NCBI GenBank assembly: GCA_030149205.1
Contig: JASBSB010000001.1
Location: forward strand, 360,001-392,000
Length of the DNA: 32,000 bases
Origin: Candidatus Heimdallarchaeota archaeon
GTDB lineage: Archaea; Asgardarchaeota; Heimdallarchaeia; Heimdallarchaeales; Kariarchaeaceae
Reading direction: 5' to 3'
The notes under the pieces were generated by a model. The model made no database searches. It was not told the DNA's origin and was given only the letters and a program-made list of their open reading frames with translations. A program made the translations under genes and the position numbers. Position 1 is the stretch's first letter, and every line of letters starts with the position of its first letter. Of this stretch, positions 11,059 through 27,923 are shown one piece after another.

Positions 11059-13371
11059 TTAATCGAATATTAAATTATGTTCGTATTCAGACCATATCCA
11101 CAGAGGTAGTTCACTACTTAAAGAGGTATTAACCCTTATTGGGTAAGATATATCAAGATGAACCTCCTTTAGAGATTTCATTGGAACTAAACAACTGATA
11201 TCTAGTTCTTCTACCTCAATATCTGTTAAATCTACAAACTCTAGAGAAAGTACCCCCAAAGGATTAAGATTTAATTGTGTAATTCTATTTTTTGAACAGG
11301 AGAAATATTTTAAGGTCAAAATTGTCTGAAGTGGAGTCAAATCTAAGCTTTCTATGAAATTATCAGAAATATCTAATAAAATAAGATTTTGCAAATTTGT
11401 AAGCGGACTAAGGTCAATGTTTTCAATTAAGTTTCCATTCAAGTAAAAATACTGCAGTTTTGTGAACTGTGAAAATTGGTTGACTTCTAAGTCCTGGAGG
11501 TTGTTTTCACTTAAAATTAAAAGTTGTAATTCAGAACGATCTTTGTCAACTGGAAAGTTTATTTGTGATAATTTGTTTTGCTGTAGTTCTAACTCCTCTA
11601 ATTCTCTAATTGGCAAATTTTCTAAATTTATATATTGCAGTTGGTTAGATGAAAGGTTTAACTTCTTTAAACCTTTTGAATATCTTAAAAAATCAGCATC
11701 AAAATCTTCGAGAAGGTTTTTGCTCAAATTAATAACCTCAAGATTTGTGAATATGTGAGACTCAAGAATATAACAGTCTACGAAGACATTATCTGAAAGG
11801 TCAAGTTCTCTGAGTCCTCCATTTATGAGACAGTGAGGTATTGTATTTAATAGATTATTTTGAAGATATAATTTCTTAAGCCCATTAAACTGTCTTTCAA
11901 AGACATTAATCTCATCCAATTTATTATTTGCAAGGTTCAAAACCTCTAGATCATCTGAATTACCTAATGGTTCAAGATTAAATTGTTTCAGTTCATTATT
12001 AGATAAGTCTAACGTATTAAGTGATATCGAAAAATGGGGGAGTTCGATTTCCTGAAACTCATTTTGACTTAGATCAAAATATTCCAAACTTTGAGTGTTT
12101 AGACTTTTAAGAGAGCAAACCATTAGTTTGTTATTTGACAAATTCACAGATCTTAGTTTGTGATGGTGTTCGAACCCAGAGAAATCTATAGTCTCAAGAT
12201 AATTTGAGGAAAGATCTAAAAATGAAAGCTCAGTAAGTTCTATAAGAGGAGATAAGTCCAAATGTTTTAATTTATTACTCTTAACATCTAACAGTTTTAG
12301 ATTATTACAATTTACCAGGGGATCCAATGATAAATCTGAAATTGAGTTATAACTCAAATTCAATTCTTCAAGGTTTTTAAATTCTTCCAAAAAGGTCAAA
12401 TTTAACTCACTGAGGGTGTTGTTCGATAAGTCGATAAATTTCATGGAATTTGGGATACATGAAAGAATTTCACTAATTTTAGCCGGTTGAATTCCACTTA
12501 GGTTAATTCTTTCTAATTGAGACCACTTTTTCAACAATTTCCAGTTAAAACTTAATTTATCGTTATATGAAATATCAAAGTCCAGAATATTTGGGAGCAG
12601 GTCAAAAAAATTTTCAGACAGTTTCTCTAGGTTGTTGTGGTCTAGGTAAATTGATGTTAAATGTTCCAGATTTTTTGATGGGGCTTTGACCTCTCTGATT
12701 CTATTTTCTCCCAAATTGAGATAGGTAAAATTATTCATGTCAGTGAAATTATCTAATGAAAACTCTTCGATCATATTGTTATTTAGTATCAAATTTTCCA
12801 AGTTTGGAAATTTTTCATTAATATTTGTCAAATTAAATTCTGAAAGATGATTGTAGGCAAGAGAAAGTATGCTCAAATTATGAGGCTCTGATTGGTTGCT
12901 TAAAGTAACAGTGTAAATTAAGTTGTTGTCCAGAATAAGATATTGCAGTTCTGGAAGATTACATTCCAATCCAGATAATTCTATATCACAGAGAGAGTTT
13001 GAATTAAGCCAAATTTCTTTTAGATTTGGTAACTTTAAATTTTGAATTGGAAATTTTGATAGGGAATTATTTCTGATAAACAGATATTCCAGTCCTTTTA
13101 ACATTGAAAGACTTTCAAAATTTATTTGATTCAACTCATTTCCATCTATTTTCAATGATTTTAAATTTGTAATATCCCTTAGTTTTTCAAATGGAATTGT
13201 TTTGAATGCATTATTTGAGAGATATAAAATTTCAAGTTCAGGCAGATACTGAAATTTATCAAATTCAAGAGATTTAATATTAAGGTCACTTAGGTCAAGC
13301 TTTAATATAGATTCATCGACCTCGAATTTAAAATATGTTTCATCAGCCATTTCTCCCTTAATTGTTATCAT
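11059..13371 (-). CDS. Leucine-rich repeat protein (roughly 28-30 repeats, no signal peptide or effector domain)
   Basis: LxxLxLxxNxL repeats over nearly all 770 aa, with recurring 'DLSPL/NLEPL' elements. Confidence 0.95.
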   Translation of the reverse strand: MITIKGEMADETYFKFEVDESILKLDLSDLNIKSLEFDKFQYLPELEILYLSNNAFKTIPFEKLRDITNLKSLKIDGNELNQINFESLSMLKGLEYLFIRNNSLSKFPIQNLKLPNLKEIWLNSNSLCDIELSGLECNLPELQYLILDNNLIYTVTLSNQSEPHNLSILSLAYNHLSEFNLTNINEKFPNLENLILNNNMIEEFSLDNFTDMNNFTYLNLGENRIREVKAPSKNLEHLTSIYLDHNNLEKLSENFFDLLPNILDFDISYNDKLSFNWKLLKKWSQLERINLSGIQPAKISEILSCIPNSMKFIDLSNNTLSELNLTFLEEFKNLEELNLSYNSISDLSLDPLVNCNNLKLLDVKSNKLKHLDLSPLIELTELSFLDLSSNYLETIDFSGFEHHHKLRSVNLSNNKLMVCSLKSLNTQSLEYFDLSQNEFQEIELPHFSISLNTLDLSNNELKQFNLEPLGNSDDLEVLNLANNKLDEINVFERQFNGLKKLYLQNNLLNTIPHCLINGGLRELDLSDNVFVDCYILESHIFTNLEVINLSKNLLEDFDADFLRYSKGLKKLNLSSNQLQYINLENLPIRELEELELQQNKLSQINFPVDKDRSELQLLILSENNLQDLEVNQFSQFTKLQYFYLNGNLIENIDLSPLTNLQNLILLDISDNFIESLDLTPLQTILTLKYFSCSKNRITQLNLNPLGVLSLEFVDLTDIEVEELDISCLVPMKSLKEVHLDISYPIRVNTSLSSELPLWIWSEYEHNLIFD

Positions 13372-18984: not shown

Positions 18985-19551
18985 TTAAGGAAAACTTTCA
19001 TCACTTGTCGCAGACGTTATCATTTCTTGTACCAACCAATCAAACATAGAATCTACGCCATCACCTGTCTTTGCCGAGGTTTCAAAATATGAAAGTGGAC
19101 TATTGTTTAATATTTCATCCAATAGGGCTCTTACACCATCTAGGTTAGCTTCATTAACAATTCTTTTTTCAATTAGGTCAATCTTATTACCAACAAGTGC
19201 AATAGGAACTTTCCTGTTTATTACAATCTTCAGGATATCTTCTAACCACCACAGGGTGTTTTCAATATCAATCTCACGTGTAACATCGAGTACTAAAACA
19301 CATCCGGCAACTCCAGTAGTATAAGATTTTCGGATCTCTCGAAACTCCGCATCCCCAGCTAGATCCCATATGACCAGTTCAGCATCATATGAATCAGATT
19401 TTAATTTAACTGTCTTAATTTCAACCCCTAAGGTTTTCAGGTACTTTTCGTTAAAACTCTCACCCGAAATCATCCTTCTTAAAGAGGTTTTACCAACTCC
19501 TTGGTCTCCAAGTAACACGATTTTAAAGGCGAAAGAATTCTCATCAAGCAA
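18985..19551 (-). CDS. Rab/Ras-like small GTPase
   Basis: G1 GDQGVGKT, G2 T in 'YLKTLG', G3 WDLAG, G4 NKID, G5 ETSAK. No C-terminal Cys motif. TTG start. Confidence 0.92.
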   Translation of the reverse strand: MLDENSFAFKIVLLGDQGVGKTSLRRMISGESFNEKYLKTLGVEIKTVKLKSDSYDAELVIWDLAGDAEFREIRKSYTTGVAGCVLVLDVTREIDIENTLWWLEDILKIVINRKVPIALVGNKIDLIEKRIVNEANLDGVRALLDEILNNSPLSYFETSAKTGDGVDSMFDWLVQEMITSATSDESFP

Positions 19552-19704: not shown

Positions 19705-20469
19705 TTGAACATGGACAAGGCGTCTCGCATCATTTTTTCAATTCTAAAGCTTCAAATGAAAAAAATTGCAATTGCTGGTCCCACAGGGGCAGGGAAAACC
19801 ACATTATTTAAATTGGTCTTTCCTTACAATGAGTACAACCTTAATGAGGTTGAAAGAAACATTACCAGGGAAGCTCTTTCAGAGATATCTATAACACAGA
19901 TTGAGGAGGATCAGTTTGAAAATTCGACAACTACTGTAAGTTTCAATGTAAGTAATGCAGTGGCATGTATTGACCTGGCTAATCGAATGAACATTTACGA
20001 GATGAAGAATGATCTAAATTTTCTCTTAGAAAATGATTTTGATTACATTCTTCCCATCCAAATTATTGATATTGCAGGTCAGGACAGGTTTAGATTCATG
20101 GTTGAAACCATGATAAGGGGATCTTCAGGAGTTATTTTTGTTGCAGATGGTACAAATGTATCCAGTATCAATAGACTTCCTGAATTTCGTGAAATTGTTC
20201 ATCAAGAAGAACTTCGAATTAACAGGAAAATTGAATCAATTGCCTTTGTAAACAAATCCGATATGGCAAAGAGAAATTTATATGTAGGAAGTGGCCCTGC
20301 GAGGTCAGCTCTTCCTGAAGATGTTGAGGTCTTTGAGACAACTATGTTTGATAAAGACACCTATCTCTATCCGATTAGAAAATTAATTGTCAAAATGTTT
20401 GAAAAACACCTTACAAGTGAAGACCTAAGAAATCATGTAAAGAAGATGTCTTCATTACAAAGAACTTAG
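19705..20469 (+). CDS. MglA/CvnD-like small GTPase with insertions around switch I
   Basis: G1 GPTGAGKT, 'STTTVSF' (compare TTTVAMDF), 'DIAGQDRFRFM...RGSSG' (compare GQxRFxFM...RGAxG), G4 NKSD. The true start may be Met3 or Met18. Confidence 0.8.
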   Translation: MNMDKASRIIFSILKLQMKKIAIAGPTGAGKTTLFKLVFPYNEYNLNEVERNITREALSEISITQIEEDQFENSTTTVSFNVSNAVACIDLANRMNIYEMKNDLNFLLENDFDYILPIQIIDIAGQDRFRFMVETMIRGSSGVIFVADGTNVSSINRLPEFREIVHQEELRINRKIESIAFVNKSDMAKRNLYVGSGPARSALPEDVEVFETTMFDKDTYLYPIRKLIVKMFEKHLTSEDLRNHVKKMSSLQRT

Positions 20470-21392: not shown

Positions 21393-22346
21393 TTATTTGG
21401 ATTTTTCTTTCTTTTTGTCCTCAGAAAACATACCTTGGTTTAACAGAAGTTTGAAGTCTTCAAATCCTAATTTTTCTCCGGACTCTATTTTTTTCTTGAT
21501 ATCAATTGCTCGTTCTTTTTCATTCCTCTTATTTTCTGCATCAATGAGCTCTCTTTCACGTCTTTTCTCCTTAGAGGTTTTCTCACCAATTTCTTTCCTG
21601 ATTCTATCTGCTTCTTTTGAGATTTCATTGATCTCATTTCTAATCTCTCTAATTTTCGTACTAATCTCTTGAATCTGTTGGTGTTCCTCATCAGCAATTT
21701 TCTTGATCTCAAAAGATTGTGCTTTCAATTCTAAAAACTTATTATGGTGATCCTGTGATTCCTGTGCAAGTTTGGTCAATTCCTTATGATATCCTCTTGC
21801 TGTACTGGAATGCATTCTTAGTTTCTCTCTTACAGCACGAATTTCATCTCTCTTTTCGTTTGCTACTGTTAACTGGTCGAGTTGTCTGTATAAATCTTCA
21901 ATTTCTGAAATTATCTCATTCTCTTCTTTGTTGTCTAGATTAGGTGAAATTTCTAGCTTGTTTTCAAGTTCATCTATACGTCTGCTGAGATATTTTGTTT
22001 TTCGATAACTATTGTTTGAACCTTTGGTTTCTCCTAGAGCTTCTTCAAGTTTGTCTAACTCAGCTTTTGCCTTAGCCACATCTTCCTTAGCCAGATCTCT
22101 CAAAGCTTTTTTTAGTTGGACCTCTTCGTTAATTTTGTCCCTTTCATCAAGATGTGTTCGAGCCTCTTTGTAATGGTCTCTAAACTCCTTGTTATGACCG
22201 TCTCTTTTCTCACGAAATTCGTTTCGTTCCTGTTCGAACTTTCTGACCTCAGTTATGAGGTTTTTCCGTTGATTACGTAACTCGTTGAGAGTCTCACGTT
22301 TTTCTTTCAAATCAGTTTTGTCCATTGTAACCGACAAATATTTCAC
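21393..22346 (-). CDS. Conserved archaeal coiled-coil protein (COG1340-type)
   Basis: E/K/R-rich heptads with the characteristic C-terminus 'AIDIKKKIESGEKLGFEDFKLL'. The start may be ATG 22325. Confidence 0.8.
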   Translation of the reverse strand: MKYLSVTMDKTDLKEKRETLNELRNQRKNLITEVRKFEQERNEFREKRDGHNKEFRDHYKEARTHLDERDKINEEVQLKKALRDLAKEDVAKAKAELDKLEEALGETKGSNNSYRKTKYLSRRIDELENKLEISPNLDNKEENEIISEIEDLYRQLDQLTVANEKRDEIRAVREKLRMHSSTARGYHKELTKLAQESQDHHNKFLELKAQSFEIKKIADEEHQQIQEISTKIREIRNEINEISKEADRIRKEIGEKTSKEKRRERELIDAENKRNEKERAIDIKKKIESGEKLGFEDFKLLLNQGMFSEDKKKEKSK

Positions 22347-23816: not shown

Positions 23817-23825
23817 AAAAAAAAA
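23817..23825 (-). terminator. Oligo-T (T9) archaeal-type terminator candidate downstream of the DPM2-like gene
   Basis: A9 run on the + strand, 10 nt after the stop at 23836. Confidence 0.35.
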
Positions 23826-23835
23826 TTGTTGTCGA

Positions 23836-24132
23836 TTACGATGTTTCTGCGGATTCAGTTTCAACTTCTTCTGTTGCTTTCTGTAAATCTTCCTCTGTCC
23901 ATTCAACTGGTGGAGGAGTGGTAATAAGGGTAAGACCAATCCATCCCATTATTCCAAACACAACCAGAATCATCAGAAACACTGGGATTGTAATAGCATA
24001 CATGAACACCACATCATTTAATTTTGATGGAAACATGGCAGGATATGCTAGTAGATAATAGATTTCAAAGATTATTGCAAAAAGACTGATGAGGGAAATG
24101 ATTACACCAATTAACTTATCTGTGCTTGCCAT
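23836..24132 (-). CDS. Two-TM small membrane protein resembling eukaryotic DPM2
   Basis: 98 aa. 'TDKLIG...SL...YP...YAITIP' has the same spacing as human DPM2 recalled from memory. Followed by TPPP and an acidic tail. Confidence 0.65.
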   Translation of the reverse strand: MASTDKLIGVIISLISLFAIIFEIYYLLAYPAMFPSKLNDVVFMYAITIPVFLMILVVFGIMGWIGLTLITTPPPVEWTEEDLQKATEEVETESAETS

Positions 24133-24150: not shown

Positions 24151-24168
24151 AGGTTAAATAACCTTTCG
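24151..24168 (-). promoter_or_regulatory. BRE-TATA promoter candidate for the DPM2-like gene
   Basis: Minus strand reads CGAAAgg-TTATTTAA, 21 nt before the ATG. The TATA lies within the inverted repeat AGGTTA-N2-TAACCT. Confidence 0.45.
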
Positions 24169-24198: not shown

Positions 24199-25524
24199 TT
24201 AAGAATCCATGATTTCCAAGATTGTATCTACACATCTTATTATAAGTTCTGAACCATCAATGTGAGGCACACTGTTTTTCGAACAATATTCTATTAAACG
24301 AGTTGTATTATTAACCAAGGGGATATCTATTATTAAACTCACTTTATCCAGATATTTTTTTGGAACTGGCAAGATATTTGGGAGATCACCTTCTCCGAAT
24401 GGAACACAATTAAATATCAAATCAAAATCTATGGACTCACTTGGATCTATTGGCTCTACTTTAGGAAAAAAGGAATTAATCACTTCGATTTTTTGAAAGT
24501 TTCGATTTCTTACTCTAATCAAAGATGATCCGGGGTAGGAAACTGCAACCAGAGATGAAACGACAGAATTAAGACCCTCGATATACACATTAAAGAATTT
24601 CTCAAGAGAGTATTCTTTAAGGATTTTTTGAAAGGTTAGATAATAGATATCATAAGCCTTCCAAACTCCTCCTATATGTCTAATGAGACTAATATTTTTT
24701 GAGATGCTTACTGAGCTATCAAATTCTTCTACAAAAGGATATAATTCCGATTGAAATGGAGGAAAAACGAACAAACTGTTAATATACGTAGATTTAAACA
24801 CAGGAAATGCACGTGTAAATTCAATGATATTATTCAATTCTAGGACAGTAAACTTAATGGAATCACCATTTAGAACATCAAATACTTTTACTGCTTGAAT
24901 TTTTTGTCCTTTTCGTGTGAGAACCAATGTATTAAGGTTATATACTGATAAGTCCTCTCTTTGATCCGAAAAGAAATTGTTTAGATCATCTCCACAAAAC
25001 AAGGAGAAGATTTCTTTTAAATCACCTTCCACAAATATATGGTAATCTTGGTTTGTACTATTGAGCTTTTTTACCCAATTATAAATTTCAAGAAGGTCAG
25101 TTATTGAGTTAGGGTGAACTATTATCTTTGCTACGAAAGTCCCAAGTGATTTCTTCAAATCGATTATACTCTCAAAATCTATTTTTGCTATACCCTCATA
25201 ATCTACAAAGACAACGATTGGTATCGACCCATTTTCTAAAAGGGTCATAGAAAGTAAATCATAAGGGTACAGAAACTCAATGTAGTGGGGATGCAAGTCA
25301 ACGATCTTCTTCAAAAGTCTGATACGCATATCTAAAGAGCCAAATTCTGACCAATAAGGTAGTGTCAATAAATATTTTTGATTAGTCTTTTCGTTGATTT
25401 CATTTAACAATCCACTGGAGAGGACGAACTCATTAACCTCAAACCTTTTAATTTTATTAGAGTCAAAGGACGATGATAAAAAATCCTGAATATTATCAAA
25501 ATTGATAATCTCGGGTTTCTTCAT
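24199..25524 (-). CDS. Degenerate type I 3-dehydroquinase / shikimate dehydrogenase (AroD-AroE) fusion-like protein
   Basis: N-half 'GTFVAKIIVHPNSITDLLEI' matches AroD GADIPKIAVMPQS. C-half 'VRNRNFQK', 'DLIFNCVPFG' and 'TTRLIEYCSKNSVPHIDGSEL' match the AroE Rossmann domain. Most catalytic residues are substituted. Confidence 0.7.
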   Translation of the reverse strand: MKKPEIINFDNIQDFLSSSFDSNKIKRFEVNEFVLSSGLLNEINEKTNQKYLLTLPYWSEFGSLDMRIRLLKKIVDLHPHYIEFLYPYDLLSMTLLENGSIPIVVFVDYEGIAKIDFESIIDLKKSLGTFVAKIIVHPNSITDLLEIYNWVKKLNSTNQDYHIFVEGDLKEIFSLFCGDDLNNFFSDQREDLSVYNLNTLVLTRKGQKIQAVKVFDVLNGDSIKFTVLELNNIIEFTRAFPVFKSTYINSLFVFPPFQSELYPFVEEFDSSVSISKNISLIRHIGGVWKAYDIYYLTFQKILKEYSLEKFFNVYIEGLNSVVSSLVAVSYPGSSLIRVRNRNFQKIEVINSFFPKVEPIDPSESIDFDLIFNCVPFGEGDLPNILPVPKKYLDKVSLIIDIPLVNNTTRLIEYCSKNSVPHIDGSELIIRCVDTILEIMDS

Positions 25525-26444: not shown

Positions 26445-27923
26445 TTATCGTGTATAGAAAATTTGAGAATTAATTTTATGAAGTGTTTTTAACACCTCAC
26501 ATGTTATTGCTATATCATTGTTCCATGAACCATTACTTTCTTGCTGTGCTCCAAGAAAATATACAGCATATTTCACAACATCTCTCTCGACTGAATCATT
26601 ATGGATTACACTCCTTAAACAAAGTGCAGTAGCATAGACAGAATTATCCCAGCCTCCTTCAATTCCTTGTTGGTTTCTAATGTACTCCTTCACCTTTTCT
26701 AACCTGGTCTCGATTCTCAATTCTGTGTCTGAAAAGCTCGGTAGGTCAAATGCAAAACCTTCATCTTTACTTGGCTTAATTTCTACTATTGGCTCGTTAT
26801 CTGTAGTCATCTCGATTAATGAGTTAAACAATAAGCCCAAAAATAGGTTTGAGATATTTTCTTCTTGAGCAGTTACATTAAATCTGGTGATAGAGCGATT
26901 CAAAACAATATTAAATGTGTTTGCGATAATATCCGCCAGAAGTTGTGCTGGTTCCATTTGACCTAATAATTTGTAGATAGGTCCAAGAACGGGAATGTAG
27001 GGAAGTTTTCCTGAGGCAAGAAATTCTTTGGATTGAATTTCATTTACAAAATCCCACTCGCTAAAATCAAACATTAATTTGGTAATTTCAGCCAGCTGTT
27101 CGTCATTAAAAGCAGCATTCTTAGGATCTACATTCAAAATGAAAAGCAATGGAATTAGTTTCTCGTATGTTGGTTCAATATCTATTTTCTCAATAACATC
27201 TAACACTAGATAGTAGATCTGCTCAAATGTTCGTGTTTCCTGTTCTCCGTTAACAATCTGAGTCCATGAGTAGCTGAGCGGTTTTTTCAAATCCACAAAA
27301 AGTCTACCTACCTCAGATGTTTCATAAAGAGGGTTTTTCTCACCCCAAGTACCAGATGTATCTTGCTTGCTGAACAGCCACTTTTCAGCCCTCTGGATCA
27401 ACTCATCAATTTTCAAATCTGACAAAGGTATTCTCTTAAGCTCTTCTTTAATGTCTTTGAACTGACTGATGAGGTGGGTAGTTTCACTTTTACTTTGGGA
27501 ATTAAGCAGAAAATATCCGGCAGCAATAACCGTGGACATGATATTAACAAAATAAAGTAATGATAACAATTCGAGATTTTGAGTGTTATTTGTTTGAAGT
27601 CCAATACTAAATAGAAATGTACTTACTGCCCCTGTAAGTAATAAAATTGCTACAACCCTGTTTTTTATTGAAAAAAACATCCCAAACTTAAAAAATTCAT
27701 CTAGGAAGGTTAACAATAATAAGATTATTACAAAATATTCAAAGTAAAGTGCATAAAATGGCAATCCAACCAACTCACCCTTGCTTCCCAAAGAATTAAC
27801 CATTGATTGAGTTATTACCAGATTAAACCCCACTGTAACAACAAGATAAATTATTTCTAGACTCTCTATAGTCCGTTTTCTTGAATAATTTAAGACTTTG
27901 CTATAGCTTTCGTTACCACTCAT
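26445..27923 (-). CDS. Membrane-anchored protein with prenyltransferase/squalene-cyclase-like QW repeats
   Basis: About 4 N-terminal TMs, then repeats 'WLFSKQDTSGTW' (W193), 'YIRNQQGIEGGW' (W425) and 'FLGAQQESNGSW' (W467). Confidence 0.7.
   Translation of the reverse strand: MSGNESYSKVLNYSRKRTIESLEIIYLVVTVGFNLVITQSMVNSLGSKGELVGLPFYALYFEYFVIILLLLTFLDEFFKFGMFFSIKNRVVAILLLTGAVSTFLFSIGLQTNNTQNLELLSLLYFVNIMSTVIAAGYFLLNSQSKSETTHLISQFKDIKEELKRIPLSDLKIDELIQRAEKWLFSKQDTSGTWGEKNPLYETSEVGRLFVDLKKPLSYSWTQIVNGEQETRTFEQIYYLVLDVIEKIDIEPTYEKLIPLLFILNVDPKNAAFNDEQLAEITKLMFDFSEWDFVNEIQSKEFLASGKLPYIPVLGPIYKLLGQMEPAQLLADIIANTFNIVLNRSITRFNVTAQEENISNLFLGLLFNSLIEMTTDNEPIVEIKPSKDEGFAFDLPSFSDTELRIETRLEKVKEYIRNQQGIEGGWDNSVYATALCLRSVIHNDSVERDVVKYAVYFLGAQQESNGSWNNDIAITCEVLKTLHKINSQIFYTR

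Follow-up and report, generated by a model that had tools for sequence, protein, structure and literature searches.

DPM2 is the regulatory subunit of the type-II dolichol-phosphate-mannose (Dol-P-Man) synthase and also a component of the GPI-GlcNAc transferase, of which PIG-P is an essential subunit. The membrane tether of DPM1 is another small protein, DPM3 (PF08285), which has two transmembrane (TM) helices and a cytoplasmic C-terminal helix within about 92 amino acids, and mammalian DPM2 reportedly contacts DPM3 directly, not DPM1 (Maeda et al., 2000). In the type-III Dol-P-Man synthase (DPMS) of P. furiosus (PDB 5mlz) two pairs of TM helices are fused to a DPM1-like catalytic domain, and Gandini et al. 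(2017; PMC5526996) proposed that these pairs are the topological equivalents of DPM2 and DPM3 and noted that DPM2 is similar to the TM helices of the archaeal type-III enzyme; a later account expects the TM domains of the eukaryotic and type-III enzymes to be structurally distinct (PMC12992685, 2026). DPM2/PIGP has been listed among duplications that are of archaeal origin and predate LECA (PMC12872463, Nature 2025).

Here we analyse a short gene in a 32,000-nucleotide stretch of DNA from a Candidatus Heimdallarchaeota archaeon (the whole stretch is referred to below as the window). The original prediction for this gene, made from the sequence and from a comparison with human DPM2, was a two-TM protein that is a prokaryotic counterpart of DPM2. 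We compare the protein and its relatives with DPM2, PIG-P, DPM3 and the type-III synthase, and consider which enzymes it might serve.

The gene and its predicted product

The open reading frame at 23836-24132 is a real gene, because homologues are present in all 41 genomes of the same order, as found by six-frame search, and in 100 of the 151 sampled genomes of the phylum. Its parts, and the signals that flank it, are the following.

23836 to 24132, minus strand: coding sequence of the 98-aa DPM2/PIG-P-like hairpin protein, from the list of open reading frames, stop codon counted in
24154 to 24161, minus strand: TATA-like box TTATTTAA, putative promoter of the gene's own, read by eye with no statistical test
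23817 to 23825, minus strand: T9 tract, putative archaeal oligo-T terminator, 10 nt past the stop codon, read by eye with no statistical test
24034 to 24123, minus strand: predicted TM helix 1 (residues 4-33, AlphaFold2), with D5-K-L-I-G9 at its start and the conserved P31 at its end
23920 to 24012, minus strand: predicted TM helix 2 (residues 41-71, AlphaFold2), with M-Y-A-I-T-I-P at its start and the invariant W64-I65-G66 at its end
23908 to 23919, minus strand: T72-P73-P74-P75 motif at the end of TM2, T72 and P75 being invariant in 23 homologues
23842 to 23895, minus strand: predicted C-terminal acidic helix (residues 80-97, AlphaFold2, pLDDT about 85)

The TATA-like box sits in the 66-nt gap behind the upstream gene and has a purine-rich GAAAGG immediately 5' of it, likewise recognised by eye on the minus strand. 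Its distance from the ATG of the hairpin gene is 22 nt, a spacing compatible with a leaderless transcript. The BRE-TATA promoter and the T9 tract that the original prediction assigned to this gene correspond to the putative elements read here by eye, and the residues on which it was built (T4, D5, G9, S16, L17 and P31, and the run Y45-A46-I47-T48-I49-P50) can all be read directly in the translation. The two TM segments that it claimed correspond to the first two of the three helices (4-33, 41-71 and 80-97) in an AlphaFold2 model computed from a 23-sequence alignment, which has a mean pLDDT of 89.7. On this model the 98-aa protein is predicted to consist of a two-TM hairpin and a C-terminal acidic helix, the latter probably cytoplasmic.

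Distribution and conservation of the family

A word-indexed protein search with the window protein returned nothing beyond the protein itself, and an NCBIfam scan returned nothing meaningful. In a library of 1.84 billion protein representatives a profile of the hairpin core matched 319 clusters at E<=1e-3, and the window protein itself matches the family profile there with 90 bits (E 7.8e-21). The detections in the phylum, made with the same core profile, extend over 41 of 53 genera.

Across an alignment of 23 archaeal homologues G9, W64-I65-G66, T72 and P75 are invariant, and the window protein has them all. Of the other positions that had been matched to DPM2 in the original prediction, D5 and P31 reach at least 90% conservation, S16 is conserved only loosely, and T4 and L17 show none. 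What is conserved in the family is Gly, Pro, Asp, Trp and Thr and not bulk hydrophobic residues, and an acidic tail is common to all homologues in the alignment. Most of the 150 library matches listed carry the T-P-P-P motif, which, judged from these alignments, can be taken as a signature of the archaeal hairpin family; TPPP-tailed relatives in other archaea, which had been suspected from the outset, do exist.

The family motif YWALAIP appears at the start of TM2 of the window protein as the variant M-Y-A-I-T-I-P, in which the Trp is lost. The window copy is 40-43% identical to orthologues from the same genus (L011, L013, L014), compared with 60-63% for the DPM1-like enzyme of the same genomes (see below); its terminal branch in the tree is long, and no other orthologue of its own family (f1) has so short a loop. 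It is a fast-evolving, unusually divergent member of the hairpin family. The maximum-likelihood tree itself, with 83 hairpins and 95 columns, leaves 47 of 79 branches unresolved, and the positions of eukaryotic DPM2 and of the PIG-P fragments in it are unreliable; its sole supported clade is a group of paralogues (group B, support 96).

The same genome has a group B member, a 92-aa hairpin (G000:C12:32870-33148, minus strand; L039:6871-7149) that carries the tail T-K-E-P-x-x-L-x-Y-E-E-A-Y in place of T-P-P-P and the acidic tail, and orthologues of it were seen in 8 further genomes of the family. In this genome the end of the group B gene overlaps with the beginning of a PlsC-type acyltransferase gene (PF01553, 85.9 bits), and an acyltransferase of this type lies near the group B hairpin in 4 of 10 loci. 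Some other relatives have an acidic tail that is extended by a Lys-rich linker and a C-terminal domain that by eye resembles a helix-hairpin-helix (examples are L005:1501-2103, plus strand; L010:1315-1770, minus strand; P0012, P0015, P0085 and P0142), an odd extension for a presumed glycosyltransferase subunit.

Relationship to DPM2 and PIG-P

When searched by itself against Pfam, the window protein scores below the gathering thresholds of both DPM2 (PF07297; 14.2 bits, E 0.054, threshold 27.3 bits) and PIG-P (PF08510; 13.1 bits, threshold 39.3 bits), and it scores 15.3 bits with a holin family. At E<=1, 20 of 23 homologues match the Pfam DPM2 model and 19 of 23 the PIG-P model. Six of the ten homologues tested (L004, L009, L010, L012, L015 and L021) exceed the DPM2 cut-off, with 31.1-35.2 bits, and the best relative on PIG-P has 37.1 bits, none of those tested reaching 39.3. 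In the opposite direction, the archaeal profile retrieved, out of 1.84 billion proteins, mollusc and plant proteins that NCBI/UniProt name DPM2 (E 1e-6 to 3e-6) and a DPM2-like protein without a name from a eukaryotic transcriptome (E 2.4e-7), as well as a PIG-P fragment (P0123; 43.8 bits, above the PIG-P cut-off).

Alignment of the archaeal core with 11 eukaryotic DPM2 sequences by hhalign gave a probability of 99.2% and an E-value of 2.6e-19 over 79 columns; the 11 sequences were taken from the archaeal profile's own matches, which makes this result mildly circular, while the Pfam result is independent. The alignment pairs D5, G9, S16 and P31 with D6, G10, S17 and P32 of DPM2, and Y45, A46, I49 and P50 with its Y-A-x-x-I-P, across a DPM2 loop that is three residues longer, and thereby reproduces the register of the original prediction. 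A profile search of PDB sequences gave only matches at E>6 (VMA21, TMEM258), with no DPM2, PIG-P or 5mlz chain among them. Foldseek with the predicted hairpin structure found in the PDB nothing but generic helical hairpins (E>=2).

Shared ancestry of the archaeal hairpin family with eukaryotic DPM2 and PIG-P is very probable, because relatives exceed the Pfam DPM2 cut-off, named DPM2 proteins are retrieved by the archaeal profile, and hhalign aligns the two families with high probability. The window protein resembles DPM2 in size (98 aa, against about 80-100 aa), in its two-TM hairpin, and in three features that lie in register, a D-x-x-x-G where TM1 begins, a Pro where it ends and a Y-A-x-x-I-P where TM2 begins. 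It differs from DPM2 in its sub-threshold score and in a loop shorter by 3 residues; moreover, the Y-Y-T-x-W that is invariant in mid-TM1 of DPM2 is absent from the archaeal consensus, the window protein having F-E-I-Y-Y there, and TM2 ends in W-I-G-x-T...T-P-P-P followed by an acidic helix, whereas the tail of DPM2 is short and basic.

The likenesses to PIG-P are of a similar kind, namely the N-terminal two-TM hairpin, the YWALAIP motif of TM2, and Thr and Pro, as T-x-P, right after TM2, which in the archaeal family take the form YWAxAIP...TPPP and in the window protein that of M-Y-A-I-T-I-P and T-T-P-P-P. The archaeal YWALAIP and T-PPP motifs match the PIG-P consensus in PMC3217874, which also warns of TM-driven false homology. 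However, the globular C-terminal part of PIG-P, about 60 residues, is missing, and all that comes after the hairpin is an acidic helix of 18 residues. The overall layout of the window protein is also that of DPM3, without a sequence relationship, and the hairpin profile has no similarity to the TM domain of the type-III synthase 5mlz at E<=10.

By these scores, motifs and retrieved proteins, relatedness to DPM2 and to PIG-P is about equal. Since the kinship to PIG-P is about as close, we regard the protein as a member of the DPM2/PIG-P family and not as a DPM2 orthologue, and on sequence grounds it is best filed as an archaeal family member that is the orthologue of neither. The original prediction of a prokaryotic DPM2 counterpart consequently holds as to homology but not as to specificity for DPM2, and comparison with the Pfam DPM2 model, negative for the window protein, was positive for six of its ten tested homologues.

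Genomic context and candidate partner enzymes

The neighbours of the hairpin gene in the window are of the housekeeping type, AsnRS and a conserved 441-aa protein, and at hairpin loci of the sister family they are NAC, an arcTGT-like PUA protein and V-ATPase subunit F. The gene of the 441-aa protein (24199-25524, minus strand) shares its strand with the hairpin gene and immediately precedes it, a placement kept in 7 of the 8 related loci where it was detected; the protein has no Pfam match, and its C-terminal part has, by eye only, a shikimate-dehydrogenase-like look. A DUF7121 protein (21393-22346, minus strand) is found near the hairpin gene again in related genomes. The window also encodes a 492-aa protein with weak squalene-hopene-cyclase-type repeats (26445-27923, minus strand), two Ras/Arf-type small GTPases (18985-19551, minus strand; 19705-20469, plus strand) and a 770-aa leucine-rich-repeat protein (11059-13371, minus strand). 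Small GTPases and leucine-rich-repeat proteins are typical eukaryote-like signature genes in Asgard archaea, and the Ras-family GTPase genes of the window mark the organism as one of these. Among sequencing runs, no RNA run with this DNA is listed, and the one run that covers it in full is a sediment metagenome, which may be its source.

The closest relative of the P. furiosus synthase in this genome is a 234-aa GT2 enzyme (G000:C4:61575-62279, plus strand; L036:5576-6280), which matches 5mlz at E 1.1e-29 with residues 9-232 on residues 24-242 of 374, that is, over the catalytic domain only. This DPM1-like enzyme is single-copy and was matched in 37 of the order's 41 genomes. In this genome, as in each of the 29 full-length orthologues extracted from relatives, the enzyme ends at about 230 aa and has no hydrophobic helix, so that it requires either a partner in the membrane or an amphipathic anchor. 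Where the type-III synthase has two helix pairs fused to its catalytic domain, this genome has the catalytic domain on its own and two free hairpin paralogues. Every orthologue of the GT2 enzyme ends in the basic amphipathic stretch S-K-I-G-K-K-x-I-x-x-F-x-K-S-L-F, and near its gene are a second GT2 gene, a nucleotide-sugar-dehydrogenase-like gene and a Ras-like GTPase-looking gene, the latter two recognised by eye.

A further difference from the eukaryotic DPM2 system is that no DPM3 (PF08285) was found in this genome, the best match (16.7 bits) being a spurious one inside a branched-chain amino-acid permease. The PIG-A-specific domain PF08288 and the models PF06432 and PF05024 (PIG-C/PIG-Q) likewise found nothing in this 93.5%-complete genome; the negatives for PIG-C and PIG-Q are weak, because the PF06432 and PF05024 controls gave no match anywhere.

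At 30 loci of the DPM1-like gene the flanking 1.5 kb contain no hairpin gene, and at 40 hairpin loci no DPM1-like gene occurs within 1.5-3.5 kb. In a phylogenetic profile of 151 genomes of the phylum, a test limited by GT2 paralogy and profile sensitivity, the hairpin and a close DPM1-like orthologue show no clean co-variation. The Asgard families f7, f16 and f24 have the hairpin in 4/4, 13/14 and 3/3 genomes, respectively, against 0/4, 0/14 and 0/3 for a close GT2 orthologue; many families possess the hairpin without such an orthologue, and pairing of the two is therefore not obligatory. A complex prediction for the DPM1-like GT2 enzyme with the hairpin returned 'no answer' (score 0.00) and is evidence neither way. 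Sugar-nucleotide genes occur near some members, with an NTP_transferase gene beside P0031 and PGM/PMM near the loci of family f2. The genome has six GT4-type genes, the nearest of which is about 138 kb from the hairpin gene.

Tandem-duplicated relatives beside GT4 genes

The archaeal profile also matches four-TM relatives in which the hairpin is duplicated in tandem (E 1e-6 to 1e-10). They are found directly upstream of a pair of GT4 genes on three independent contigs (L095:6001-9658; L096:638-4569; L097:26-3530), and on at least two of the three a methyltransferase gene follows the GT4 pair. The organisms appear to be bacteria, two of the contigs having neighbours of clearly bacterial type; the neighbours on L095 include SpoIID, RuvA and OmpA, and L096 is high in GC. 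An inositol monophosphatase gene is found immediately upstream on L095, and the first GT4 enzyme matches PDB 7qsg, 'D-inositol 3-phosphate glycosyltransferase', at E 5.5e-64. The position of the tandem relatives directly upstream of GT4 genes ties the family to soluble glycosyltransferases of prokaryotes, outside eukaryotes. This context supports a glycosyltransferase-helper role in general, and the PIG-A/PIG-P pair may have a prokaryotic analogue in the tandem hairpin with its GT4 operon.

Discussion

Kinship of archaeal proteins with DPM2 and PIG-P is already on record, both through Pfam-based annotation and in the literature: one archaeal cluster of the ESM Atlas bears the name 'Dolichol phosphate-mannose biosynthesis regulatory protein family', and the archaeal origin of DPM2/PIGP is listed in PMC12872463. 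The kinship that the original prediction put forward is, in this respect, not novel. What the locus adds is context and not discovery, in the form of a divergent family member, another paralogue within this genome, a DPM1-like enzyme that is conserved and lacks TM helices throughout the order, and a bacterial GT4 operon.

Regarding function, we lean, by analogy with DPM2 and PIG-P, towards the view that the hairpin is a non-catalytic membrane subunit for a cytoplasm-facing glycosyltransferase that has no TM helices of its own. Such a subunit would dock, stabilise or activate an enzyme that loads sugar onto a membrane-lipid acceptor. A more specific form of this reading, in which the hairpin and the 234-aa GT2 enzyme together make up a split, type II-like dolichol-phosphate-mannose synthase without DPM3, is put forward only tentatively and we hold it to be rather improbable as it stands; in a split synthase of this kind the T-P-P-P motif and the acidic helix would act as the cytoplasmic docking element. 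In favour of the hairpin as a helper of a Dol-P-Man synthase are the match of the GT2 enzyme to no more than the catalytic domain of 5mlz, its lack of a hydrophobic helix here and in its orthologues, and the negative searches of this genome for DPM3, the PIG-A-specific domain, PIG-C and PIG-Q. Against this particular pairing speak the separate locations of the two genes, the housekeeping neighbours, the many families that have the hairpin but no close orthologue of the enzyme, the contact of mammalian DPM2 with DPM3 and not DPM1, the loss of Y-Y-T-x-W in TM1 and the lack of similarity to the TM domain of 5mlz. Taken as a whole, the account that combines DPM2/PIG-P ancestry, a role as a glycosyltransferase membrane subunit and the 234-aa GT2 enzyme as candidate partner is the best explanation of the data that we have, and we judge the chances for and against it to be evenly balanced.

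A different partner would be called for if the hairpin were PIG-P-like in function and served as the membrane subunit of a GT4 enzyme (of the PIG-A/MshA/PimA type) that glycosylates an inositol lipid or a lipid with another polar head. Much of the evidence above bears on this: relatives score as high as 37.1 bits on PIG-P, the archaeal YWALAIP and T-PPP motifs are those of the PIG-P consensus (PMC3217874), a true PIG-P fragment is recovered by the archaeal profile, the bacterial tandem forms lie directly 5' of two GT4 genes, with an inositol monophosphatase beside one of them and a match to 7qsg for the adjacent GT4 enzyme, and GT4-type genes, six in number, are available in this genome. On the other hand no relative reaches the PIG-P cut-off, the globular C-terminus of PIG-P is absent, the nearest GT4 gene is some 138 kb away, and neither the PIG-A-specific domain nor PIG-C or PIG-Q was found, the last two negatives being weak; we consider a PIG-P-like role unlikely here. 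We think it equally unlikely that the family, although descended from the same stock as DPM2 and PIG-P, performs some other housekeeping task at the membrane, as a subunit, an assembly factor or a tether acting through its acidic tail, that is unrelated to glycosyltransferases. The hairpin gene does keep company with translation and housekeeping genes and not with glycosylation genes, it does not co-occur with a particular glycosyltransferase, the tails of several relatives are fused to a helix-hairpin-helix domain that is probably nucleic-acid-binding, and the source of one member calls it 'predicted DNA-binding transcriptional regulator'. Yet the two eukaryotic relatives that have been characterised both serve glycosyltransferases as subunits, the tandem forms of bacteria share operons with GT4 genes, and conservation is highest in the membrane hairpin, as it is in DPM2 and PIG-P.

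That the resemblance is a chance likeness between hydrophobic hairpins, or that the reading frame is not a gene, is an idea we regard as effectively refuted. It draws on the mixed, sub-threshold scores of the window protein taken by itself, where a holin family ranks above DPM2 and PIG-P, on the generic hairpins that Foldseek returned from the PDB, and on the caution of PMC3217874 about TM segments. Against it stand the conservation of the protein in 41 of 41 related genomes, the nature of the conserved residues (Gly, Pro, Asp, Trp and Thr rather than bulk hydrophobics), the 99.2% hhalign probability, and significant reciprocal matches between independent models, the Pfam HMM matching the relatives and the archaeal profile matching named DPM2 proteins.

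Returning to the hairpin as a glycosyltransferase subunit, a broader and more speculative scheme can be drawn, which we find somewhat less probable again than the split synthase considered for this genome. In Asgard archaea of the Lokiarchaeia type a split Dol-P-Man synthase would use the two hairpin paralogues in the places of DPM2 and DPM3, the hairpin would be an ancient adaptor of soluble glycosyltransferases that act on lipids, and the bacterial operon would be an analogue of PIG-A/PIG-P. DPM2 and PIG-P are small subunits of the ER membrane, and even in eukaryotes what they do is only vaguely understood; an archaeal family ancestral to both would offer a simpler system in which to learn what the hairpin does for a glycosyltransferase. 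It would also bear on whether multi-subunit enzymes of the Dol-P-Man or GPI type existed before eukaryotes.
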